Shown: positions 16,062-38,627 of the stretch, one piece after another
How positions within the stretch are numbered: position 1 is the stretch's first letter
Layout: every line of letters starts with the position of its first letter
Assembly: GCA_045646085.1 (NCBI GenBank)
Contig: JAZRJZ010000006.1
Location: 17,164-81,163 of the forward strand
DNA: 64,000 bases
DNA from: Candidatus Nanosyncoccus sp.
GTDB taxonomy: Bacteria > Patescibacteriota > Saccharimonadia > Saccharimonadales > Saccharimonadaceae
Direction of reading: 5' to 3'
Program-made: the position numbers and the translations under genes
Notes under the pieces: model-generated
Seen by the model: only the letters and a program-made list of their open reading frames with translations
What the model was told of the DNA's origin: nothing
Databases searched by the model: none

Positions 16062-16416
16062 TGGTGGAGCTGCCGGATACTGCCTCCGGGTCCGAATTAT
16101 CACATGGATACCATTCTACGTACATAGTTTTCTGTTTTGTCTTGGCCACATTTAAAAAGCTGCAGAAAACGAAACTTTCTAAAGCCATGGCTGATTGTCG
16201 GACTACTAAACGCCACGTCAGTAGTCGTATTCCCGTAGTATGATAATCCTGATCCTACGGAACCTTAGAACAGGACCAGCCTACGAATAATTAGGCATAA
16301 GCTGGCATGTAAGCAACATGCGCAGTTTTCGTGTTTTTAGCACTTATTTAATACTTACGGTATTCAATCGGTACGCCTGATATCTGTTAATAAACCGTCT
16401 AAGCTTTTTCAGCCCC
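16062..16416 (-). ncRNA. ssrA: tmRNA (SsrA)
   Basis: The minus strand reads 5' GGGGCTGAAAAAGCTTAGACGG ... TTCGGACCCGGAGGCAGTATCCGGCAGCTCCACCA 3'. The acceptor GGGGCTG/CAGCTCC has G3:U70. The candidate tag ORF is GCT AAA AAC ACG AAA ACT GCG CAT GTT GCT TAC ATG CCA GCT TAT GCC TAA. Confidence 0.85.
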
Positions 16417-26777: not shown

Positions 26778-28306
<1,529 letters not shown>

Positions 28307-28471
28307 CTTGAGAAGGAATTGATGCTTATGAATCCGTGAGGACACATAATGCTAGGTCGGTTACGGTTGTGTTAAGTAAGCTTATAACACAACAACTCTG
28401 GTTTACCAGACGTAACACTAAGCTTTACACAAAACTACGAAGATAATTGCACAACTAAGTTGTTAAACACT

Positions 28472-28498
28472 AATCCGCCCCAAAAAGGCGGATTTTTA
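28472..28498 (+). terminator. Intrinsic terminator directly after the 16S processing stem
   Basis: AATCCGCC-CCAAAAA-GGCGGATT-TTT. Confidence 0.8.
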
Positions 28499-28527
28499 TC
28501 CTCAAATGATTATGGTACAATAAAACC

Positions 28528-29589
28528 ATGGAAAATCACAATTCATCTCCATTCAAAAACGAAAACAGTTCACCCGTAGATCATGATTTAGACAAAGGCT
28601 TCGGAGAAAAGGCAGAAGCACCCAGCAAAGTATTTTTAGGAAAAACGAAGGATGGCGCAGAGGTTTACGACAGAATAGACAGCCATTTTCACAGCGAAGG
28701 AGGATTAACGCCTGAGCTCTTGGCGGAGGCCATCGGCACTATAAACTCCAAAGGCAGACCATTCATTAAAGAAAAAATAGACTTCGATCACATCATCGGT
28801 GCTCAAACTTGTGTAGAAACTGGGCCAGAAGACGAAATCGTGATGGTTTATCGCAAGGGAAGAAGCGGCCAAACCCCAATGGTAAAAAATCGAGACACAG
28901 AACCGTGTAATTCGATTATAACCATACTCAGAAAAGACTTTTCAGTTCGCGATAAGGACGCTTATGAGATGGCGACCAGCTATATAGGGAGTGACTCCCC
29001 AAGAGAACCTTGGGATCCTAGCATTAGCACAGACAAAGAGCTTCAACAAAGTACAGATTTTTGGAATTCCCACGCTTTGCTTTATGATGATAGCTTAATC
29101 GATTGGGAAAGGACAAAAGCCTTTGAATTTATGTCCGAGCCTACTAAAAGGGCAGAACTTATTCGGCAAAAAACAATCTATGCTGGACTCTTTGTCGATC
29201 CAGTAGATTTATATCAAAAACAGCCATCAACCCTAGAGAAAAGAATCAAAAACCCGCATGTCACCACAGCATTCAAACCAGGCCTCGATCAGCTTCATCT
29301 CGAACAAATCGGGAGCGTCGCCAGAATATTTGCAATTGGTTATGGCAACGATGGAGAAAATGAAGGCTTACTAGTCAGGATTGAAGCGGATGACCCAGAA
29401 ATTCAAGCGGTGTGCGATAATCTAGAAACTCCCCATATCACTCTATCGATTAGCAAAAAAGGACAAGCTGTAAATACGGCGTTTCTCGATTTTGCGCCTC
29501 TTGAGACCCCATTTGAAATAACAGGATACTACGGGTTATTCTCTCAAGGAAAACCCAGAACTAATCCAGCAGAGCTATCAAATAGTTGA
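28528..29589 (+). CDS. Hypothetical protein with a C-terminal 2H-phosphoesterase-like domain (two H-x-T-x motifs)
   Basis: HVTTAF and HITLSI lie ~58 aa apart in the C-terminal third. The N-terminal ~200 aa are unrecognised. Confidence 0.4.
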   Translation: MENHNSSPFKNENSSPVDHDLDKGFGEKAEAPSKVFLGKTKDGAEVYDRIDSHFHSEGGLTPELLAEAIGTINSKGRPFIKEKIDFDHIIGAQTCVETGPEDEIVMVYRKGRSGQTPMVKNRDTEPCNSIITILRKDFSVRDKDAYEMATSYIGSDSPREPWDPSISTDKELQQSTDFWNSHALLYDDSLIDWERTKAFEFMSEPTKRAELIRQKTIYAGLFVDPVDLYQKQPSTLEKRIKNPHVTTAFKPGLDQLHLEQIGSVARIFAIGYGNDGENEGLLVRIEADDPEIQAVCDNLETPHITLSISKKGQAVNTAFLDFAPLETPFEITGYYGLFSQGKPRTNPAELSNS

Positions 29590-29651
29590 ACTAATTTCGA
29601 CAATTATTCCATTCTTTACCACTATAATTGGCAAGAATTGAAACAACCCAA

Positions 29652-29680
29652 TTGACAAAAACACATTTTAGTGTTATTAT
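29652..29680 (+). promoter_or_regulatory. Promoter TTGACAAAA-...-TATTAT for kinase 1
   Basis: 17-nt spacer. It belongs to the repeated promoter cassette (TTTCGACAA lies 57 nt upstream). Confidence 0.55.
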
Positions 29681-29737
29681 AGCATTATCGCTCAACGGGT
29701 TGAACATTTTCAAGCAATTAGGAGGAGGTGTTATTGC

Positions 29738-30193
29738 GTGGCCAAATTTATTGCGATGGTTGGCATTGCCGGTTCTGGCAAGTCAACGATAGTGGCCAAG
29801 TTGGCAAAAGAGTATGAAGCTGTCGTATGTAGTTCCGATGCTATTCGCGGGGAATTGTATGGCGATGAGTCCATCCAAGGAGACTTTCAGTATGTTTATA
29901 AGCTTATGGAAGAACGTGCTAAGGAGGCTCTCGAGGCAGGACGTAACGTCATTTACGACGCCACCAACGTCACAGCCTGGCGACGCCGTCAAATACTAGC
30001 TTGGCTTCCTCAGGGAGTTGAAAAGGAGTGCGTTTGGGTCAATGTGCCCATTGAAAAGGCACTTCAAAACAATCTGAAGCGAGATCGTCACGTTCCCGAA
30101 TGGGTAGTTCGTCAGCATGCAAAACAGCTAGAGCCGCCCACTTTGACGGAAGGATGGAATCATATTCGCGTTGTCGAATGGCCTCAACACTAA
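29738..30193 (+). CDS. P-loop polynucleotide-kinase-like protein (Pnkp/T4 Pnk kinase-domain type, AAA_33-like), paralog 1
   Basis: GIAGSGKST Walker A, SSDAIRGELYGD, YDATN, RDRHVPEWVV. GTG start behind AGGAGGAGG. Confidence 0.6.
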   Translation: MAKFIAMVGIAGSGKSTIVAKLAKEYEAVVCSSDAIRGELYGDESIQGDFQYVYKLMEERAKEALEAGRNVIYDATNVTAWRRRQILAWLPQGVEKECVWVNVPIEKALQNNLKRDRHVPEWVVRQHAKQLEPPTLTEGWNHIRVVEWPQH

Positions 30194-30219
30194 AGGCGGA
30201 CTAATTAGTCCGCCTTTTT
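30192..30219. terminator. Bidirectional terminator AAAGGCGGACT-AATT-AGTCCGCCTTTTT
   Basis: The stem is almost identical to the terminator at 32162-32189. Confidence 0.8.
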
Positions 30220-30996
30220 ACTATTTTTTTGTTTCAATTCCGTTTGATCAGTTGCTTTACGAATGTATTTTCTAGCAAATAAGAAAAATTGACGCATCGC
30301 ATCAGCTATCTCCGGAGACTCTATCAGCGTAGACATTCCGTCCTTTCCGTAGTTAATAAAGGCTACATTATCTCCAAAAATATCAATTTCCACCGGAGAA
30401 TCATACTCAGAACCAGGCAAAACCGTTCGATCAAGTAATACCTTTTTCGCTGTCTTACTATCTAGATTTACAAAATCATGAGAGGTAATATTATTAGCTT
30501 CAATTTTGGCCGCAACGCGTCGTTTTTTAAAATCTTCAAGCGCCTCGTTATCCGCCATTTCATCAAACTTACTTCTTACAAAATAAAAAGTTCGTCCAGT
30601 ATCCACAATTTTGTCATAGATCATCTTCACCCCCTCCTGCCCATAAAAAGTCGCTACGCCTGGCTCATGTTGACGTTCATTATAATAGTTAATAATCGAG
30701 GGAAGATTACTCTCTAGATTCTTCGCCTGTCTCGCTACAACACGCAGGCGCTTCTCGGCAATGGTTTCAAGTGCAGAAGGATGCTTTGGTACGTAAGCGG
30801 CGATTTTACCTCTGTCTTTCTGGGCAATCAGACCAATTTTCTCTAACTTTTCCGCTGCGGAATAAACCGTAGTTCGATTTTCTCCGATACCATTAGCAAT
30901 TTCAGTAGGGGTGCTTTGCCCGTTTTCTACTAGAAATAAATAGATGTTTGCTTGCATTTCCGACAAGCCAATTTGAGTTAAAATACTTTTGTCCAT
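30205..30996 (-). CDS. TrmB-family transcriptional regulator
   Basis: N-terminal wHTH: LTQIGLSEMQANIYLFLVENGQSTPTEIANGIGENRTTVYSAAEKLEKIGLI. The start was trimmed to MDKSIL. Confidence 0.6.
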   Translation of the reverse strand: MDKSILTQIGLSEMQANIYLFLVENGQSTPTEIANGIGENRTTVYSAAEKLEKIGLIAQKDRGKIAAYVPKHPSALETIAEKRLRVVARQAKNLESNLPSIINYYNERQHEPGVATFYGQEGVKMIYDKIVDTGRTFYFVRSKFDEMADNEALEDFKKRRVAAKIEANNITSHDFVNLDSKTAKKVLLDRTVLPGSEYDSPVEIDIFGDNVAFINYGKDGMSTLIESPEIADAMRQFFLFARKYIRKATDQTELKQKNSKKAD

Positions 30997-31093
30997 AGAT
31001 CCATTATAGTCCCAAAAATAGGATTTTGTCAATATCATTTCGACAAAATTTCAAATCCCCACCTCTATAAAAAATAAATTTATGTTATTATAG

Positions 31094-31122
31094 TTGACAA
31101 AAATAGAGTTTTTTGCTATACT
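31094..31122 (+). promoter_or_regulatory. Promoter TTGACAAAA-17-TATACT for the large untranslated transcript
   Basis: Read directly. It is divergent from the TrmB-like gene. Confidence 0.65.
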
Positions 31123-31128
31123 TACAAC

Positions 31129-32189
31129 AGTTGCGAAAAGTTGGGAGCTTCGAGCAATCGCATTTTAAAACATTGTTCCAAAATCACTTCACAGTTTTTT
31201 AGACAAAGCTTGAGGTGACATTCCAGCGAAATAAAAGGTTGAAGCGGTATTTCGTTGGAGCGTCACCTTAAGCGGACCGCTTTTGGTGGCGACGTCGCGT
31301 CGTATAATGCTAAACCAGTTGTAGAGGTAAGATTTGACCCTTGCCTTGGCTGGATACACAGAAGGCCGTCTTTGACGGCTAGACACGAGAAAGCTATCAA
31401 AAGCAGAATTGCCTCCGTGTGAGATAGCAAGTATCGAGGGAGTTTAGTAATAAACTCCTATACGATACCCGAAAGGGAATCGTAAAAACTGTGTAGTATG
31501 GACGTTTTGGAGCGAACCGATCGTAAGGTTTGCTTATGTTGTACAGCACACGAGCCTAAGAACGGGACACGGTGACGGCCTCTTGCCTCCAAGTGGAGAC
31601 GAGTAGGAGAGAAGGTGGTGTAGTGAATGGCCGCAAACCATTCATCAAACCGCATGGCGTCGCGCTTCCTGAGCCTCAAAAACTCAGGGATGTTTCCCAA
31701 TGTTCGATCCTGGCCTTCAACACAGAGGTGTTGAGGGGTGCCTCAGGAGCCTGCCGGAGGGCAGGAGGTAAGTGGTACCGGGTGGCAAGCGAGGAAGCCT
31801 CGCCTATGAATATGAAACAGTCCTGGACGTTTTGGCGTCCGGGACGAGATTACCGCAAGGTATCTCTAGCCCCTTGGGCTAGCTCGGCGGACTCCGCCGG
31901 TCATATTCAACTCGGTTCGTGTACTAGGTGCCTTACGAGGCTTCCTCACAAAGGTACACGTGGGCAAGCAAACCCAAAGACAGAGGAGTATCGAGTAGGT
32001 GGTCGGCCAACCATTCGAAAGTGCGAGATCTGTTAGAGGGTGTCCATGGCTCAACAACAACAAAACGTTTTCGTCACCAAACCGTAGGGATACGATAAGG
32101 GACGAAGGAAAACCATTGGAAGTATGGCCCCAAGCCAAAACCTTCCTAGCATTTTACACGTGGCGGACTATCAAGTCCGCCTATTTTTT
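31129..32189 (+). ncRNA. Candidate giant structured ncRNA (~1.06 kb), family unassigned
   Basis: It runs from promoter to terminator and carries no credible ORF. At least 13 perfect local hairpins are present, for example 31468-31477 CCCGAAAGGG, GTGAATGG-CCGCAAA-CCATTCAT, CCTGCC-GGAG-GGCAGG, GTCCTGGACG-TTTTGG-CGTCCGGGAC, CTAGCCC-CTT-GGGCTAG and CGGCGG-ACT-CCGCCG. It is more G+C-rich than its flanks. Confidence 0.6.
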
Positions 32190-32265
32190 ACCATAGATTG
32201 TCGAAGTTATTTCGACAAATTCTCGAAATCTCACCCCTGCAAAAATCACAATCATAACTTTGCAA

Positions 32266-32294
32266 TTGACAAAATACGTCATTTCTGCTATAAT
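32266..32294 (+). promoter_or_regulatory. Promoter TTGACAAAA-17-TATAAT for the DUF1874 gene (structured ~165-nt 5' UTR)
   Basis: Read directly. The inverted repeat TTGTCGAA-N5-TTCGACAA lies 56 nt upstream. Confidence 0.65.
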
Positions 32295-32465
32295 GGTAGC
32301 AACAATCAGCAAATGATTGTGCAGTTTAAAATAGCATTAAGATATCCTGTTGGTTCCTGTGGCTAATTGTGGGTTATTTAGTCTAGCCTACAATCAGCCA
32401 CAGGAGACGTCCTTGGCCGAAATATCTTTTCGGCCGACGGGCCAAAAACAGGAAAGGAGCGCGGT

Positions 32466-32792
32466 ATGAATTACCTCGCCAACGCCTTCAGTTTGCAGAT
32501 GCTTGATGTCGCCACGGAGATTAACGTCTCCATCCGGCCTATCGAGCCGACCGAGGTCCCCTCGGACGCGATCAGCTGCATCGGCCATGCCGATACGGCG
32601 AATGTCGTATCCGACCTCCTCGGCCGGCCGGTAGCGTGCCACCGGGCGAGCATTGCCCTTGAAGAAGACGACGTCTTGTACGTCGCCCAAATCATGGGCG
32701 GGCGACTGCCTGAAGGCGCCACCACCCTACCGGAGGGGTTTAGCCTTCAGTTCCTGGAGGTAGTCCCCTACATCAAAGTCCTCCCGTATTAG
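32466..32792 (+). CDS. DUF1874-family protein (AcrIII-1/Crn2-type cyclic tetra-adenylate ring nuclease family)
   Basis: 108 aa. The N-terminus is YLANAFSLQML, followed by SCIGHADTANVVSDLLG and GGRLPEGATTLPEG, the pattern I associate with SIRV1 gp29, STIV B116 and ICEBs1 YddF. RBS GGAAAGGAG. Confidence 0.65.
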   Translation: MNYLANAFSLQMLDVATEINVSIRPIEPTEVPSDAISCIGHADTANVVSDLLGRPVACHRASIALEEDDVLYVAQIMGGRLPEGATTLPEGFSLQFLEVVPYIKVLPY

Positions 32793-32998
32793 GAGGCGCG
32801 ATTGCCCTTCTGGGGCGGAAAGGGGCGGCATATGCTCCGTAGTATCTTCCCAGGGGTCGACCTGGGTTACCAAAACGACACCAAACTCTCTAGGCCCCGG
32901 GGAGAACATATTTAAGGGGTCTGCCGGAAAAACCGGCAAATGGGGGTAGTGTACTCCCGCCCCCTAGAGGGGCAACTAGAGGCGAAAGCCTAGTTGTA

Positions 32999-33085
32999 GC
33001 GCAGTTTTGAGTCTGCGCTCGCCCAGCTAAAGGGTGCACAAGTTAAAACTCAACCTCCAGGGCGGGCTCTCTGCTCGCCCTCTTT
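32999..33085 (+). other. 3'-UTR structured motif copy A: hairpin, mini-hairpin, loop-complementary segment (pseudoknot), terminator-like hairpin
   Basis: GCGCAG-TTTTGAGT-CTGCGC ... CCC-AGCTAAA-GGG ... ACTCAA ... GGGCG-N11-CGCCC-TCTTTCC. Confidence 0.5.
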
Positions 33086-33188
33086 CCATATTTGAAGCTA
33101 GATAATTGCGAACCACTTCGTTCTCAGCTATCTCGTTTCAAACGAAACGGGAGAATGTTTACAATTGGGAAAGAAAGGAGGCCACATT

Positions 33189-33890
33189 ATGGCCACCTCC
33201 ATCAACAACCAAGGCTCCACCACGACCTTGCAGATGGGCGACTTGATCGTTCTGTCGTTGCAGGATGATTACGTTTGGGAAAACGAGCTCATGACGCGCT
33301 CTTTTCCATTCAAACTGCAAGATGCGGCCGGAATGCGACCGGGGGATGTTTTTGCCCCTCGCGCTGGCATCGTCGCTGGCCTAACCTCCTATGAGGGAAT
33401 AGAGACTCTGGTTTACCAGAGCTTCCACTGCGGGCGGTATGCTCCCGCCGGGATGGAGGTTGTCCTTTGCCTAGAGGATAGTCTCTTCTCGGTTCAGCGC
33501 TATTCGCCATGGAGTGGGCACTTCGGCCTTCCTAAGCGAATGGACTCAAGGCAGTTTAGCTTCGACTCCTCCTTCTTCTATGGGGAAGTTTCCCCTAGGA
33601 AAAGGTTGGGCGATGTCTTAGCCGATAACCCCCCTGTCGTCTTAGCTCGCATCAAAGAGGAAGCTCGTCAACAGGCGAGATGTAACTCCTTACAAAGCTA
33701 TGGTGGCAAGGGGGCAGAAGACATCAAATTCCCGCCCGACGCTCTGCTACTCGATTTGTATCGAGCGGCAAGAGTTATGGGGCACAGGGAAGTCTATGTC
33801 CCAACCTTCTACACTCTCCGCTCATGCATTTTAGAGCGGGACGGGGAAAGAAGGAGAATTGCGGCTAGGGTCTCTCTAGAGAATTTCTAG
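33189..33890 (+). CDS. Hypothetical protein (G+C-rich gene)
   Basis: ATG behind an AAAGGAGG RBS. No recognisable motif. Confidence 0.5.
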   Translation: MATSINNQGSTTTLQMGDLIVLSLQDDYVWENELMTRSFPFKLQDAAGMRPGDVFAPRAGIVAGLTSYEGIETLVYQSFHCGRYAPAGMEVVLCLEDSLFSVQRYSPWSGHFGLPKRMDSRQFSFDSSFFYGEVSPRKRLGDVLADNPPVVLARIKEEARQQARCNSLQSYGGKGAEDIKFPPDALLLDLYRAARVMGHREVYVPTFYTLRSCILERDGERRRIAARVSLENF

Positions 33891-33900
33891 TCGTCCGACT

Positions 33901-33991
33901 CGCGCAGTTCTGGGTCTGCGTAAGCCCCTTTTTAGGGCAAAACAAAACCCAGAAAAATCTTTCTGCCCTCGGCTTTATCCGGGGGCTTTTT
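33901..33991 (+). other. 3'-UTR structured motif copy B (same architecture as 32999-33085), ending in an intrinsic terminator
   Basis: CGCAG-TTCTGGGT-CTGCG ... GCCC-CTTTTTA-GGGC ... ACCCAGAA ... CCCTCGG-CTTTAT-CCGGGGG-CTTTTT. Confidence 0.5.
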
Positions 33992-34058
33992 CATTAGTCA
34001 ATGCCCAACCCATCTTTTTTAGACACACCAAGCCCCATATGCTAGAATAACCATAAGC

Positions 34059-34757
34059 ATGCCAAAAAAGAACAAGTCTAAAACAACTAAAATTAAGTTC
34101 AATCTACTCGATTGGTTGTGTTTCGCCATCAGCGCAGTAGTATCTCTTATAATTATTCTTTTTTACCACGAAAACCCTCCTTTTTACACCTTCATGGGTA
34201 TCGTAGCTTTAAATACCGGCGTCATCGGTACAATATTAAACATCAAAGGCTACCGCAGTAATTACATTTTCGCCCTCATCAACGCTTTCGCCTGTTTTTA
34301 TACGTCCTGGATTAATCATTTCATCGGTAACGCACTAATGAATCTCGCATTCTACGGTCCGGCCAATTTAGTAGGTTTTCATTCTTGGGGTAAACACAGC
34401 GGAAAAGACAAAAAAGTGATTGCACGCAAATTTACTCTAATCCAAGCTATTGCCGCTGCCTTCATATTCATTATTACTACCATTCTGTTCAATGTTATTC
34501 TAGTCGCCTTAGGCGGTTCACAAACCATCCTAGATAGCGCGACTACAGTTTTAGCAGTGTTTGCTATCATCCTCTCTATTCTTCGTTTTCGCGAGCAATG
34601 GGTCTTTTGGCTTTTGTCCGACATCCTTCAACTAATCATGTGGACTACAACTAACGACCCGGCCGTGCTCGCGCTTAGAATATTCTTCCCACTTAGTTCT
34701 ATTTACGGCTACATCAGCTGGCGAAAACTCATTAAAAAACCAAAAAATAGGCGCTAA
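34059..34757 (+). CDS. pnuC: Nicotinamide riboside transporter PnuC family
   Basis: Polytopic, with a PnuC-like pattern (NIKGYRSNYIFALINA ... W.N ... SWGKH ... WT). Confidence 0.6.
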   Translation: MPKKNKSKTTKIKFNLLDWLCFAISAVVSLIIILFYHENPPFYTFMGIVALNTGVIGTILNIKGYRSNYIFALINAFACFYTSWINHFIGNALMNLAFYGPANLVGFHSWGKHSGKDKKVIARKFTLIQAIAAAFIFIITTILFNVILVALGGSQTILDSATTVLAVFAIILSILRFREQWVFWLLSDILQLIMWTTTNDPAVLALRIFFPLSSIYGYISWRKLIKKPKNRR

Positions 34758-34798
34758 TCATCCTCGTTTATAAGGGAATAATCTGATATAATTGAGAG

Positions 34799-35500
34799 AT
34801 GAGCACAAGTTACGATATTGTTTATTTTGTGAAAGAAGAAAAAACCAACGAAGAGTTGCGTTTTTCGCTTCGCTCTATAGAAAGAAACTTTCCTCATGCA
34901 AGAGTTTGGTTTTATGGCTGTGCTCCAGAGGGAATTAAACCAGATAAGTTAGTTAGATTTGTTCAGGCTAATGAAGAAAAATATTCAAATGTCGGCACGA
35001 TGATGACCATGGCTTTCGCCAACAAAGAAATCAGTGAGAACTTTTGGATTTTTAACGACGATTTCTTTATTATGAAGCCAGTCAAAGATTATAAACCGCA
35101 TTATGATGGAGATTTATACCGGTATATCGTCGCAGTCGAAAACAACAACGACGAGCAAGTCTCGCGGTATACTCACATTCTTCGCTCAACCGCAAAACTA
35201 TTAGAGGAAAATGGATTGCAGACTAGAAATTACGAAACTCATACTCCGCTTCTCGTTAATCGCGAAAAAGCCCTCTTCATCAGAACGCATTTCGGCGCCG
35301 GTATGGCCTTTCGCTCTCTTTACGGCAATTATTGGAAAATCGGCGGCGTCAATCAGCCAGACGTCAAAACAGCCGATCCATCTACCCCCTTCGACAAAGA
35401 TTCCGACGTCTTATCCACCTCAGATATCAATTTTAAAGTCGGTGATATTGGCGAATATATCCGCAACAAATTTCAAAACAAAAGTCGATTCGAAGACTAA
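34799..35500 (+). CDS. Stealth-like (CR2-CR4-like) putative sugar-phosphotransferase
   Basis: EELRFSLRSIERNFP, FNDDFFIMKPV and ETHTP resemble the Stealth conserved regions. Confidence 0.35.
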   Translation: MSTSYDIVYFVKEEKTNEELRFSLRSIERNFPHARVWFYGCAPEGIKPDKLVRFVQANEEKYSNVGTMMTMAFANKEISENFWIFNDDFFIMKPVKDYKPHYDGDLYRYIVAVENNNDEQVSRYTHILRSTAKLLEENGLQTRNYETHTPLLVNREKALFIRTHFGAGMAFRSLYGNYWKIGGVNQPDVKTADPSTPFDKDSDVLSTSDINFKVGDIGEYIRNKFQNKSRFED

Positions 35501-35590
35501 ACCTCTCTCTGATGGTATAATAGTACTATAGCATTCGTATGAAATGTTAGTACTTCAAAGTTTTGCCCCTACAACAGAAAGGAGGCCGTA

Positions 35591-36034
35591 ATGGCTCCTA
35601 GATTTGTCATGATGGTTGGCTTGGCCGGCTCTGGTAAATCTACAGTCGCCAAACGCCTCGCAACCGAAAACGGCGCTCACATAATCAGCTCTGACTCCAT
35701 CAGGAAAGAGCTCTATGGCGACGAAACTATTCAGGGTGACTCTAAGCTCGTATTTCGACTTATGGACGAACGGTGCCTGGCCGCTCTCGCGCAGGGAACA
35801 AGCGTTATTTACGACGCCACCAATGTCTCTGTTCGTTTCCGTGAACAGATACTGGAAAAAATCCCTCCAGAAGTTGAAAAAGAATGCGTGTGGGTAAAAA
35901 CCTCAGTCGATGTAGCGCTAGAGCGCAATCTCAAGCGCGACCGGCAGGTCCCCGAATGGGTCATCATCCGACAAGCAAGTCGGCTTCAGCCGCCTACCTG
36001 GGAAGAAGGCTGGAGCCAAATCCGTGTTGTTTAG
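35591..36034 (+). CDS. P-loop polynucleotide-kinase-like protein, paralog 2
   Basis: GLAGSGKST, SSDSIRKELYGD, YDATN, RDRQVPEWVI. About 60% identical to the 29738 product by hand alignment (about 88 of 147 positions). Confidence 0.6.
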   Translation: MAPRFVMMVGLAGSGKSTVAKRLATENGAHIISSDSIRKELYGDETIQGDSKLVFRLMDERCLAALAQGTSVIYDATNVSVRFREQILEKIPPEVEKECVWVKTSVDVALERNLKRDRQVPEWVIIRQASRLQPPTWEEGWSQIRVV

Positions 36035-36043
36035 TCAAAATAC

Positions 36044-36072
36044 TTGACAAAATGAGGAAAATTTGGTATAAT
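36044..36072 (+). promoter_or_regulatory. Promoter TTGACAAAA-17-TATAAT (with TGG extended -10)
   Basis: Read directly. Confidence 0.6.
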
Positions 36073-36126
36073 ACACTACATAAACCAAAACCCGACGCCC
36101 CTCGGGGGGCAGAAAGGAGGCTTGCG

Positions 36127-36264
36127 ATGAGCAAGACTTCCACCAAAAAGACGGCAACCTCCGACCGTCAGTCCCTCCAGCGCTACGCGCTGAAGCAGGC
36201 AACCGCCTCCCGTAACGGGTGGCGGGTGGAGGCGAGGGGTGACGCCCTAATCCTTCGGCGTTAG
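36127..36264 (+). CDS. Small basic protein (45 aa), G+C-rich
   Basis: ATG 8 nt after GAAAGGAGG. The product is MSKTSTKKTATSDRQSLQRYALKQATASRNGWRVEARGDALILRR. It has its own promoter and terminator. Confidence 0.45.
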   Translation: MSKTSTKKTATSDRQSLQRYALKQATASRNGWRVEARGDALILRR

Positions 36265-36324
36265 CCCCCCAACCACCGGTTAGGGCGAACCGGACCACCA
36301 AAATCGCCCAAACCACTAACCCTA

Positions 36325-36347
36325 CCCCGGCATCTGCCGGGGTTTTT
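36325..36347. terminator. Intrinsic terminator CCCCGGC-ATCT-GCCGGGG-TTTTT
   Basis: Read directly. It lies between the convergent small ORF and mazG. Confidence 0.8.
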
Positions 36348-36358
36348 CTTGTCGTTGT

Positions 36359-36697
36359 TTATCTGTTGTCGCCAGCGCCGTGTAACTTATTGCGCTCCTT
36401 ACGACTAGTTAGTTTCAGGACATTCATCTTTGCAACCTCAGAAAAGGGAACGTCCAAATATCTTGCGATACTCGCCACGTACCAGATTACATCACCTAAC
36501 TCTTTTACTATCTCTTTTTTGTCCTCATCTGTAGCGCGCCCATCCTTATCGCGTAAAACCTTTTTGACTTTATCGGCTGTTTCTCCGGCCTCACCAGCAA
36601 GCCCCAATACTTTCTCTATGAATCCGACCTCTGTCAATTTCCCTGGCCCATACAAATCAAACTCTTGAATTGCCTCTTGATATTCGTCAAAATCCAT
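36359..36697 (-). CDS. MazG-like nucleoside triphosphate pyrophosphohydrolase (single-domain)
   Basis: GLAGEAGETADKVKK...ELGDVIWY is the EExxE/D MazG helix pattern. Confidence 0.7.
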   Translation of the reverse strand: MDFDEYQEAIQEFDLYGPGKLTEVGFIEKVLGLAGEAGETADKVKKVLRDKDGRATDEDKKEIVKELGDVIWYVASIARYLDVPFSEVAKMNVLKLTSRKERNKLHGAGDNR

Positions 36698-36729
36698 CTT
36701 ACCTCCTCTTTATGCTATAATTATATCAC

Positions 36730-37251
36730 ATGGAAGATACGCGCAATTTGATAGATGAGTACAAAGGGCTCAAAAATGAACAAGTTTTTGATGAACTGTC
36801 CAAGTCGCGTACACCTTTAGAAATTGCCATCGAAAACCTTGAACACGATTTTAATATTGGCTCAATTGTCCGCACTGCCAACTCCTTTAATGTGAAAAAA
36901 GTTCACATCATCGGCAAGAAAAAATACAACCGTCGCGGTGCTATGTGTACAGATAAATATTTAGAGATTTTGCATCACCCCACCATTAAAGAGTTTCTCA
37001 AAACTCAGAAGGGCAGGGAATTGGTTGCCATAGAAAACAATCTAGAGCGCGCCAAACCCCTAAAGGATAAATTATTTGAACAAAATACCACCCTTATTTT
37101 TGGTTCCGAAAGAGACGGCATCACAAAAGAATTACTCAAAAAAGCCAAAGATATTAGGTATATCGAAAGCTTTGGCTCTACTCGTTCAGTTAACGTCGGC
37201 GTCGCCGCAGGGATTGCAATGTATGAGTACATCCGCCAAATCATCCTCTAA
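36730..37251 (+). CDS. SpoU/TrmH-family RNA 2'-O-methyltransferase
   Basis: NIGSIVRTANSF, LIFGSERDGI, SVNVGVAAGIAMYE. Confidence 0.8.
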   Translation: MEDTRNLIDEYKGLKNEQVFDELSKSRTPLEIAIENLEHDFNIGSIVRTANSFNVKKVHIIGKKKYNRRGAMCTDKYLEILHHPTIKEFLKTQKGRELVAIENNLERAKPLKDKLFEQNTTLIFGSERDGITKELLKKAKDIRYIESFGSTRSVNVGVAAGIAMYEYIRQIIL

Positions 37252-38056
37252 AACTCGTTCCAAGAGTAATTTTCTTCAACGTATTAATACTAGGTTTCCT
37301 TGGTTGAAGCTGGTCGCAGTATTAGTTATCGGTATTATCGCTATTCTTGATCTTCTTGATCTCACCATCTCTAAGGCCAATGAAACCTACCACGAAATCA
37401 GTATCGCTCCGATGTCTAAGCATATTCGTATCACAGAGCGAGATATTACTGGCAAAAAACTAGTAGCACTCACTTTCGACGACGGGCCTTCCAGCGCCAC
37501 TACACCATCCTTGCTAGATACGCTCAAAAACCGTGACGTGCCAGCCACTTTCTTTATGCTAGGATATATGGCTCGTAGCAATCCAGAGATCGTCAAACGT
37601 ATCAAAGCGGAAGGTCACGATATTGCTAGCCATACCATGTATCACCAAAATCTAATCCGAATTACTCCAGCCGCCGTTCAGGCAGACATCAACGAAGCAA
37701 ATGCAGTTTTTCAAGATATACTTGGGCATTCACTCGAATATACTCGTCCGCCATACGGCAATATCAATGACGCAGTCAGGAACAACGTCGGTACCCCAAT
37801 GATTCTGTGGTCTGTTGATACTCTAGACTGGAAAAATCAAAACACTGATTCAATCATCTCCACGACGATGAGTGAGGTTTCGGACGGAGCAATCATTCTC
37901 ATGCACGATATTTATCCCACTACTGTTAACGCAGTCCCAGTCTTAATCGATGAACTCAGAAAAGCTGGCTATGAATTTGTCACCATATCCGAACTCACCA
38001 AAATCCGCGACTACACCCTCCAAAACGGAACCGCCTACTACAATTTCCGTCCTTAG
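37223..38056 (+). CDS. Polysaccharide deacetylase (CE4/NodB) with an N-terminal TM anchor
   Basis: LTFDDGPS, HTMYH, RPPYG, LMHD. The start was moved to the ATG at 37223 (the ORF track begins at 37076, inside trmH). Confidence 0.75.
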   Translation: MSTSAKSSSKTRSKSNFLQRINTRFPWLKLVAVLVIGIIAILDLLDLTISKANETYHEISIAPMSKHIRITERDITGKKLVALTFDDGPSSATTPSLLDTLKNRDVPATFFMLGYMARSNPEIVKRIKAEGHDIASHTMYHQNLIRITPAAVQADINEANAVFQDILGHSLEYTRPPYGNINDAVRNNVGTPMILWSVDTLDWKNQNTDSIISTTMSEVSDGAIILMHDIYPTTVNAVPVLIDELRKAGYEFVTISELTKIRDYTLQNGTAYYNFRP

Positions 38057-38292
38057 CCGCCTAGTCCAAACAACAGCCTAATAAGTCCACCAAAGATAAA
38101 AGTATGTAGATTCGCAGCGCATATTAGCCCCACGATAATTGTAATTACTCCTACCAATTTTACTCTCTCGTAAGAAGACACGCCATTTGCAAGGTTATCA
38201 GAAATTTGACGATAAAATATCACCAACAACGCCCCAGCCAAAGCTATTGCGAGTCCCCCAAATAGCCAACTCAAACTAAATTCGTAACTCAT
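38053..38292 (-). CDS. Small membrane protein
   Basis: Two or three hydrophobic helices. Confidence 0.4.
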   Translation of the reverse strand: MSYEFSLSWLFGGLAIALAGALLVIFYRQISDNLANGVSSYERVKLVGVITIIVGLICAANLHTFIFGGLIRLLFGLGG

Positions 38293-38363
38293 AAGCCTTA
38301 TTGTATCACAATCTAAGGCCCCGAGGTTGACAATTTTAACTTTTTCGGTAAAATATAAGCCAT

Positions 38364-38440
38364 GGGGTAATAGCTCAGCTGATTAGAGCGCTGCCTTTGC
38401 AAGGCAGAGGTCCTGGGTTTGAGTCCCAGTTACTCCACCA
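38364..38440 (+). tRNA. tRNA-Ala (anticodon UGC)
   Basis: GGGGTAA acceptor with G3:U70, anticodon loop TTTGCAA, encoded CCA. The promoter TTGACA...TAAAAT lies upstream. Confidence 0.9.
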
Positions 38441-38627
38441 AAGTAGGAGCCGAGCGAAAAGTGAACCTGTTCACTTTTCAAGTAGGTGACGAATTACTTA
38501 AAATAGTGCTTGCACATATTTTAAGTAATGAGGAAGCTACGAAAAGAAAGTTTACTTTCTTTTCCGAGGCGACGTCCATTGGACGACTTTGAGCGTCAGC
38601 GAAAAGTCGACCAAACGTTAAAAATTT

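Follow-up and report, generated by a model that had tools for sequence, protein, structure and literature searches.

A small H-type pseudoknot RNA family in a Saccharibacteria gene island and its possible link to exoribonuclease-resistant RNAs

An uncatalogued pseudoknot family

The window analyzed here is a 64,000-nt stretch of contig C6 (JAZRJZ010000006.1) from the 705-kb, 95% complete genome of Candidatus Nanosyncoccus sp. (G000), a member of the Saccharibacteria. On its plus strand lie two copies, A (32999-33080) and B (33902-33986), of a short structured element, and these are genuine copies of a small, uncatalogued family of H-type pseudoknot RNAs. The family comprises 10 copies in four genomes of one Saccharibacteria genus: A and B themselves, five (G43_1 to G43_5) on a single contig of G043, two (G115_1 and G115_2) in G115 and one in G127. 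A coremin-type motif found nearby in the relatives, and again in an RNA virus, suggests that the module would block RNA decay rather than serve as a metabolite switch. The original prediction, read from the letters of the window, had placed both copies and the order of their elements correctly, and had proposed building a covariance model on the pair in order to find more. Such a model (R1) was built, followed by a second (R2) on seven copies, and the two models together brought the total to 10; the G127 copy was reached through a DNA search with its associated upstream domain.

Copy A begins with a stem (P1) in which GCGCAG (32999-33004) pairs with CTGCGC (33013-33018), as seen in the sequence and in the minimum free energy (MFE) fold. 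P1 encloses an 8-nt loop, TTTTGAGT (33005-33012), whose last six nucleotides, TTGAGT at 33007-33012, are the 5′ strand of a second stem (P2). A mini-hairpin (33022-33034, CCC-AGCTAAA-GGG, with 33022-33024 paired to 33032-33034) stands at the start of loop 3, which continues as the A-rich stretch TGCACAAGTTAAA (within 33035..33053) and is followed by the 3′ strand of P2, ACTCAA at 33048-33053. A GC-rich hairpin follows at 33060-33080 (GGGCGGGC-TCTCT-GCTCGCCC), with the tail TCTTTCC and without a canonical terminator. In copy B, P1 begins 11 nt past the stop codon of a 233-aa gene and joins GCGCAG (33902-33907) to CTGCGT (33916-33921), the closing pair being G-U. The loop is TTCTGGGT (33908-33915); the mini-hairpin pairs GCCC (33924-33927) with GGGC (33935-33938), loop 3 includes the A-rich AAAACAAA (within 33924..33952), and P2 pairs CTGGGT (33910-33915) with ACCCAG (33947-33952). 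Copy B ends in a canonical intrinsic terminator on the plus strand, GCCCTCGG-CTTTAT-CCGGGGGC at 33965-33986, followed by TTTTT (to 33991). The terminator scan calls only this one; the last hairpin of A, with its poor U-tract (TCTTTCC), is not called.

The two compensatory changes between the copies, U-A versus C-G and A-U versus G-C, are as first described. The pairing of all eight loop nucleotides in B, on the other hand, had to be given up: 8 bp would leave no loop-1 nucleotides, and 6 bp is therefore the realistic length of its P2. The 19-nt P1 pattern, expected 0.04 times in the window, is matched twice, and A and B are the sole two copies in the genome. Both stretches fold better than shuffled sequences on the plus strand (z about -3), and copy A matches the covariance models at 64.6-79.4 bits. 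Folded at full length, the RNA forms P1, the mini-hairpin and the terminator independently of one another.

How well is the pseudoknot itself supported? In an alignment of the 10 copies, standard pairs occupy 92% of the cells, and both sides change at four of the six P2 pairs, giving such variants as UUGAGU/ACUCAA, CUGGGU/ACCCAG, UGGAU/AUCCA and AAGGAU/AUCCUU. The observed pairing score was reached by none of 500 shuffles, and pairing collapses to 21-48% when the partners are slid by one to three columns. Only P1 and the mini-hairpin guided the fitting of the alignment, so the pairing of P2 is an independent check. The H-type fold proposed from two copies is backed by the set of 10; the P2 of G43_1 is weak. 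The P1 core, CGCAG/CUGCG, is unchanged in nine copies, G127 having GGUAG/CUAC; within P1, covariation is seen at the outermost pair and at one inner pair. The last nucleotide of the loop (U) and the A-run ahead of P2 are also conserved. The mini-hairpin covaries too and is paired wherever its letters are present; it is absent from G115_2 and G127, and its loop reaches about 30 nt in G43_5.

The general form of the module is a P1 of (N)CGCAG/CUGCG(N) with a loop of 8-9 nt, and a P2 partner segment directly past the A-run. Stem 1 is about 6 bp long (P1, 5-7 bp), loop 1 has 2 nt, stem 2 has 5-6 bp and loop 2 is missing altogether, while loop 3 is long and A-rich, ends in AAAAC/U and can accommodate an extra hairpin (0 to about 35 nt). 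The same geometry is found in the frameshift-stimulating pseudoknots of the SRV-1 and BWYV types. Their stem 1 has about 6 bp, their loop 1 has 1-2 nt and their stem 2 has 5-6 bp; loop 2 is again missing, and the long, A-rich loop 3 lies in the minor groove of stem 1. Unlike these, the element described here stands outside the coding region and has no slippery site, and a readthrough or frameshift signal at the stop codon ahead of copy B was rejected, the frame closing 10 codons past that stop. A strong hairpin follows the pseudoknot in all 10 copies, at a distance of 3 to about 50 nt from P2, and transcription of the modules runs in the direction of the neighboring genes.

The family is rare and bound to islands, because searches of several kinds led back to the same few places. 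No relevant Rfam family was found over the window at the gathering score, and none, riboswitches included, around the motif (32800-34100) at E values up to 10; the same was true of the G043 locus at E up to 1, and the viral contig L096 and the phage loci discussed below were likewise unmatched. No credible copy was found in 150 other genomes of the order, and the element is restricted to 4 of 369 genomes, all of one genus. Pattern scans of genome collections and metagenomes again gave these Saccharibacteria contigs and, beyond them, nothing but matches of low score. Of those outside the Saccharibacteria, the two that were inspected (L057 and L086) have low scores and lie inside coding regions; those in G174 and G147 are also located in coding sequence, and a match in the window at 16125-16183 is inside the transfer-messenger RNA (tmRNA).

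Subtypes and larger units

What follows the pseudoknot divides most copies into two types. In type 1 (A, G43_3, G43_4 and G115_1), there is a GC-rich hairpin without a U-tract and then a conserved long A/U-rich hairpin, which in copy A occupies 33091..33143 of the plus strand (TTTGAAGCTAGATA...TATCTCGTTTCAAA). The long hairpin was recognized by BLAST, window 32998-33141 being similar to 7160-7018 of the G043 locus L018, and by eye, its arms differing in sequence yet staying complementary in G43_3, G43_4 and G115_1. After it comes the next gene or, in G115_1, a promoter that matches the consensus at 12/12 positions. In type 2 (B, G43_2, G43_5, G115_2 and G127), a canonical terminator lies 13 to about 50 nt past the pseudoknot, with either a promoter-like site or a gap beyond it. 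A G+C-rich hairpin with a U-tract, the mark of an intrinsic terminator, is present in B, G43_2 and G43_5 and lacking in A and the other type 1 copies. G43_1 is located in an ORF-free leader (ORF, open reading frame) of about 355 nt behind a promoter. The early description of the motif as a 3′ untranslated region (UTR) element placed just before termination therefore holds for B and the rest of type 2, and does not extend to A, its three type 1 relatives or G43_1.

Upstream of most pseudoknots in G043 and G115 lies a conserved domain, about 150 nt long, whose helices covary. This domain was located on the minus strand of L018 (11395-11266, 10724-10595, 8601-8475 and 7300-7162), with further loci in L034 (G115, minus strand), L089 and L095 (G322), L090 (G488), L091 (G127) and L092 (G373). 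It combines a coremin-like hairpin, UAAUACCAAGG, a variable covarying hairpin and the core CGGGGAAGYUCCGCGGGGCUCUGRYCAGGCCGACAC. The domain occurs with or without the pseudoknot, mostly directly past stop codons and ahead of terminators: without it, the domain stands right before terminators twice in G322 and once, in partial form, in G373, and in G488 it sits before a ribosome-binding site (RBS). In G127 the order is promoter, 3′ half of the domain, pseudoknot, terminator. The pseudoknot, for its part, is never seen without a strong hairpin after it. The modules are thus combinatorial building blocks. The original prediction had overlooked both the membership of the motif in larger conserved RNA units and its link to a coremin-type motif.

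The 150-nt domain matches no Rfam family. A self-cleaving ribozyme was considered for it and gained no support from the Rfam search of the G043 locus, which gave no hammerhead, twister, pistol or hatchet match; its long invariant core would suit an RNA that is catalytic or binds protein. A small protein family (108-133 aa, GPSLDRIxDSFKY...RAFVxVWF) follows the RNA unit in G115 (L034 9584-9985, minus strand), G127 (L091) and G488 (L090 1722-2045). The G115 protein matched no Pfam family, and a search of the G000 island region (window 28001-38500) and of its G043 counterpart (L018) gave no homologue.

The link to coremin

Coremin (xrRNA-C) is an Xrn1-resistant RNA with the sequence GUCCGAAGACGUUAAACUAC. 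A spacer separates its first hairpin (hp1) from a second (hp2), which is indispensable although its sequence is free (PMC10520033). It is found in benyviruses, cucumoviruses and many other RNA viruses (Dilweg et al., PMC6546385, PMC10520033, PMC10321173). The pseudoknot-bearing units of the relatives start with CGUC-CAACCCAY-GACGUUAAACUG, identical to coremin over GUCC...GACGUUAAACU, and their first hairpin has the hp1-plus-spacer layout of coremin, GUC-loop-GAC-GUUAAACUAC. G43_3 and G115_1 read CGUC-CAACCCAY-GACG-UUAAACUG; in the others the spacer has diverged (CUAAAAUG, CAAAAAAG).

When viral contigs were scanned with the pattern, one match emerged, the 4.3-kb contig L096 (IMGVR_UViG_3300035300_000100). 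Because it encodes RdRP_2/RdRP_3 and an S-domain coat protein, L096 is classed by gene content as a tombus-like RNA virus. The match, found by the pattern scan and R2, is a composite element at 1345-1180 (minus strand, the coding strand), between the RNA-dependent RNA polymerase (RdRp) and coat genes. Its first half, ACGUCC-UGGGUAA-GACGUUAAACUGCCC, is a coremin-like hp1 with spacer. Three nucleotides on, the second half, GCGCAG-UUGUGAGU-CUGCGU-GCUAAGGCGAGC-AAAACUC, is the CGCAG pseudoknot (27.9 bits against R2), with the P1 hairpin exactly at the position of coremin hp2 and a strong hairpin again following P2. Adjacency to coremin was not included in the search pattern. The CGCAG pseudoknot thus keeps company with a coremin-like hairpin in two settings, the island of a bacterium and the genome of an RNA virus. 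From its sequence, the L096 region looks like a composite exoribonuclease-resistant RNA (xrRNA) at the place where the coat-protein subgenomic RNA would start. Further G+C-rich helices lie beside the coremin-like hairpin and the pseudoknot.

A further viral scan, with the pattern CGTCC-N7-GACGTTAAAC, returned more than 116 loci (L097-L212, IMG/VR contigs), many of them multi-copy on contigs of phage size (20-140 kb). The form of this viral family is CGUCC-N5-AU-GACGUUAAACU-N5′, usually about 30-40 nt before an ATG with a C/A-rich leader; examples are L110 (3364-3393, 6199-6220 and 10962-10991) and L157, which has four copies. One of the contig regions resembles Synechococcus phage S-EIVl. An alignment of 112 distinct viral copies shows covariation between the hairpin loop and the 5 nt that follow UUAAACU: double changes fill 118 cells, versus 42 in shuffles (0/500). 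The viral coremin-like hairpins therefore share the H-type architecture of the Saccharibacteria pseudoknot. A pseudoknot between loop and spacer has only been hypothesised in the coremin literature (PMC10321173), and the natural covariation seen here supports it. No Rfam family was found for the viral hairpins, and a literature search gave no report of coremin-type elements in bacteria or phages.

What might the pseudoknot do?

We lean, tentatively, toward the pseudoknot being a roadblock of the coremin/xrRNA kind that would mechanically halt RNase J in its 5′→3′ decay of the message, an explanation that is possible without being probable. Braced by the downstream hairpin, the pseudoknot would act like an exoribonuclease-resistant RNA of the coremin class: RNase J, degrading the upstream message from its 5′ side, would stall at the base of P1, and the RNA downstream of the stall would survive. 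For type 2 copies such as B, the surviving 3′ fragment would consist of the pseudoknot and terminator, about 90 nt; for type 1 it would be the next cistron, which in the case of A is the mRNA of the 233-aa gene. The genome does encode an RNase J (TIGR00649, 451.7 bits versus a 400-bit cut-off), and several copies are found at 3′ ends ahead of a new promoter, the classical position of an xrRNA. The sequence conservation of P1, which parallels that of coremin hp1, and the strong hairpin after 10/10 copies, like the hp2 that coremin requires, were also counted in favor of a roadblock, as were the covarying fold itself, the coremin-like start of the relatives' units, the pairing of both elements in L096 and the matching H-type fold of the viral hairpins.

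The comparison with coremin brings out both likeness and difference. Each has a short sequence-conserved hairpin followed by an A-rich spacer that contains AAAC, a loop that pairs with the spacer end (for the coremin-like viral copies, by covariation), a stable second hairpin and a location in 3′ UTRs or between genes; moreover, the pseudoknot occupies the hp2 position in L096 and shares units with a coremin-like hp1 in the relatives. The pseudoknot's own stem differs from the hp1 stem: it is CGCAG/CUGCG (5-7 bp) in 9/10 copies, with GGUAG/CUAC in G127, where coremin has GUC/GAC (4 bp with the flanking pair). As for an hp2-like hairpin, it is present in the 10 bacterial copies and in L096, at a looser spacing than in coremin. 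In the bacterial element, loop 3 is longer and sometimes holds a hairpin, and unpaired nucleotides of the P1 loop are confined to its 5′ side. The next hairpin follows at a variable distance, and the host is bacterial, so that the putative nuclease would be RNase J and not Xrn1. The class 3 xrRNAs of the Tombusviridae and Solemoviridae (Steckelberg et al., PMC6299227, PMC7668246, PMC12397905) likewise have an apical loop that pseudoknots with a downstream single strand, and occur in intergenic regions and 3′ UTRs, including the RdRp-coat gap. They have features of their own, namely an internal loop in the P1-P2 stem and a ring that encircles the 5′ end, and no sequence or Rfam match to them was found for the pseudoknot.

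Several points weigh against a roadblock. To our knowledge, there is no precedent for RNase J stalling on such folds. P1 is unlike coremin in sequence, and the next hairpin stands 3 to about 50 nt from P2, versus an hp2 right at the spacer in coremin. No coremin-like hp1 was found near A or B, either in the window or elsewhere in the genome, and the viral link consists of a single contig, L096. The relatives' hp1 departs from the loop rule YGAD/YGNNAD, its loops (CAACCCAC, CAACCAAU, CACCCAAC) having A or C at position 2; for octaloops, the coremin paper gives the rule as unknown. RNA contigs from four rumen runs cover 31280-32155 and a few short pieces, leaving the motif uncovered, and are silent either way. 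Finally, ordinary frameshift-type pseudoknots do not stall Xrn1 (PMC10321173), and for that reason a pseudoknot alone would be insufficient.

Could the element instead be a cis-acting attenuator or riboswitch, whose pseudoknot senses a small molecule or a protein? When folded, it would let the downstream hairpin or terminator form; when unfolded, an antiterminator involving the 5′ strand of that hairpin would allow readthrough into the next gene. The same structured element does stand ahead of several unrelated genes (the 233-aa ORF, a SufS-like gene, and 139-aa and 211-aa genes), and when the 3′ strand of the hairpin is omitted, the MFE structure pairs the mini-hairpin region with the hairpin 5′ strand in A, G43_3 and G115_1, over as many as 13 bp in G115_1 (in G43_4, in a suboptimal fold only). 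The promoter, RNA, terminator, gene order in G127 and the single small protein family that follows in G115, G127 and G488 would also fit a switch. So would the position of copy B ahead of a gene of the PnuC family, which riboswitches often control (PMC7749635), and the layout of the NAD+-II riboswitch, with its comparable pseudoknot and A-strand triplex (PMC10085692). However, at least four copies (B, G115_1, G115_2 and G43_2) precede a promoter-like site or no gene, and the independent folding of P1, mini-hairpin and terminator in the full-length RNA is a further point against a switch. The candidate antiterminators differ by subtype, and reading G127 by eye revealed none; the downstream genes have no common function, many being orphans; no riboswitch family is matched even at E up to 10; and the element is confined to 4/369 genomes of one genus. 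On balance, we consider an attenuator or riboswitch unlikely.

The NAD+-II RNA (pnuC motif; PMC7749635, PMC10085692) shares an H-type pseudoknot coaxial with P1, an A-run in the P1 minor groove and, for copy B, adjacency to pnuC. In NAD+-II, though, the loop of P1 contains both a P1a hairpin and the 5′ strand of the pseudoknot, whereas the inserted hairpin here is outside P1; its 3′ pseudoknot strand is the RBS, whereas P2 here precedes a terminator; the conserved nucleotides differ, this pnuC has a promoter-like site of its own, and 9/10 copies do not adjoin pnuC. Membership was rejected on the different topology and on the lack of such an Rfam match at E up to 10 (32800-34100). The curated Rfam models of preQ1-I/II/III, SAM-II/V, fluoride and guanidine-III were also unmatched in the window, the motif and the G043 locus. 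An RNA of the ToxI kind, from type III toxin-antitoxin systems, was set aside as well: ToxI consists of tandem direct repeats of a unit that forms a pseudoknot, ahead of an endoribonuclease toxin gene, while the copies here are single, about 900 nt apart with a gene between them, and followed by unrelated genes.

A simpler proposal is that the element is a passive transcript-boundary module that senses nothing and offers no block to 5′→3′ decay, serving instead to insulate the terminator from structured upstream RNA or to add a barrier against 3′→5′ exonucleases. A strong hairpin always adjoins, the element often starts 9-34 nt past a stop codon, and the upstream domain, too, stands directly before terminators in the absence of the pseudoknot (twice in G322, once in G373). 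Yet such a role leaves the strict sequence conservation of P1 and the covarying P2 unexplained, the type 1 hairpins are not terminators, and the same pseudoknot is found in an RNA virus, which has no intrinsic terminators; we would not expect this account to hold. Still more improbable is a function at the DNA level, with the palindrome GCGCAG-N8-CTGCGC as a protein operator, for example for the TrmB-like regulator encoded at 30205-31038, or as a cassette junction at which recombination between conserved units swaps cargo genes. P1 is indeed a near-invariant palindrome, and the islands of G000, G043 and G115 share their place before a TrmH-like gene while carrying unrelated cargo between conserved units. 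Against this, P2 and the mini-hairpin change in a compensatory way, every copy is oriented like the genes and the linker is A-rich, all of which indicates RNA, as does the presence of the same element in an RNA virus; there was no recombinase among the island ORFs scanned, and the sites are not near promoters.

If the roadblock is accepted for the sake of argument, a wider claim might be made, which we put forward as doubtful: that these are the first chromosomal bacterial exoribonuclease-resistant RNAs, modular units that stop RNase J and share building blocks with viral xrRNAs and with a large, uncatalogued family of coremin-like pseudoknots found in phage 5′ leaders. Exoribonuclease-resistant RNAs are known from eukaryotic RNA viruses. 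The bacterial units (coremin-like pseudoknot, conserved core and CGCAG pseudoknot) would carve out stable 3′ fragments or protected downstream cistrons, and the coremin fold would be an ancient, cross-kingdom anti-decay device. Should RNase J stall at the pseudoknot and its coremin-like partner, this would be a bacterial counterpart of the biogenesis of viral subgenomic flaviviral RNA (sfRNA), a new means of setting differential stability inside operons, and a direct test bed for the unsolved coremin fold. Even if the roadblock fails, there remains a clean, covariation-supported new RNA motif in the little-studied Saccharibacteria, in the unusual setting of an island where orphan genes are framed by conserved RNA modules.

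The island and its genes

The islands of G000, G043 and G115 occupy the same chromosomal place, directly upstream of a TrmH-like gene; by comparison with L018 and L034, the island spans 28528-36700 of the window. Their cargo genes are unrelated, except for a P-loop kinase common to G000 and G115, and for most of the remaining cargo ORFs neither Pfam nor NCBIfam gave a matching family. The conserved parts are non-coding, namely the promoter-leader cassettes, the pseudoknot and the hairpins, at about 72-87% identity. RNA units punctuate a hypervariable island of unrelated, mostly orphan genes.

The stretch with the two copies is G+C-rich, at 52-62% versus about 40% around it. A consensus promoter, TTGACA-17-TATAAT (32266..32294, plus strand; 12/12 positions in the promoter scan), heads a transcription unit in which a DUF1874 gene is followed by copy A, and the 233-aa gene by copy B, and its promoter-leader cassette is conserved in G043 and G115. 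The leader hairpin region ahead of the DUF1874 gene (32390-32445) has 80-83% identity in these two genomes, the first gene differing from genome to genome. The STIV_B116-like/DUF1874 gene lies at 32466-32792 on the plus strand (Pfam, 2.7e-07). Between it and copy A is a structured, G+C-rich and ORF-free spacer (32793..32998), recognized by its fold, that is unalignable to the upstream domain of the relatives; BLAST found nothing similar to it in L018 or L019, the two loci searched. The region 32793-33190 folds at -161.6 kcal/mol (z = -5.0), placing copy A inside a 396-nt ORF-free structured spacer.

The 233-aa gene (33189-33890, plus strand) has a strong Shine-Dalgarno sequence and 52-55% G+C. 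Its protein has no homologue in 5.8 billion clusters or 1.84 billion representatives, and the function of the gene therefore offers no clue to a ligand. Beyond copy B lies the PnuC-family gene (34059-34757, plus strand; PF04973 at 1e-31, TIGR01528). Between terminator B and the start of pnuC is a promoter-like site, TAGACA-17-TAGAAT with a TG extension (34020..34048, plus strand; 10/12 in the scan). As this site ends about 10 nt before the ATG and no Shine-Dalgarno sequence is visible at the start (34059), the pnuC mRNA may be leaderless or nearly so. PnuC was found in only 1 other of 40 relatives, and the motif was not found there. A tandem gene duplication as the origin of the two copies was excluded, the two downstream genes being unrelated.

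Elsewhere in the island, a structured, ORF-poor transcript of about 1 kb lies at 31129-32189, between a consensus promoter and a terminator. Of the 4.6 kb compared, the rumen RNA contigs cover 31280-32155, which belongs to this giant RNA, and little else.

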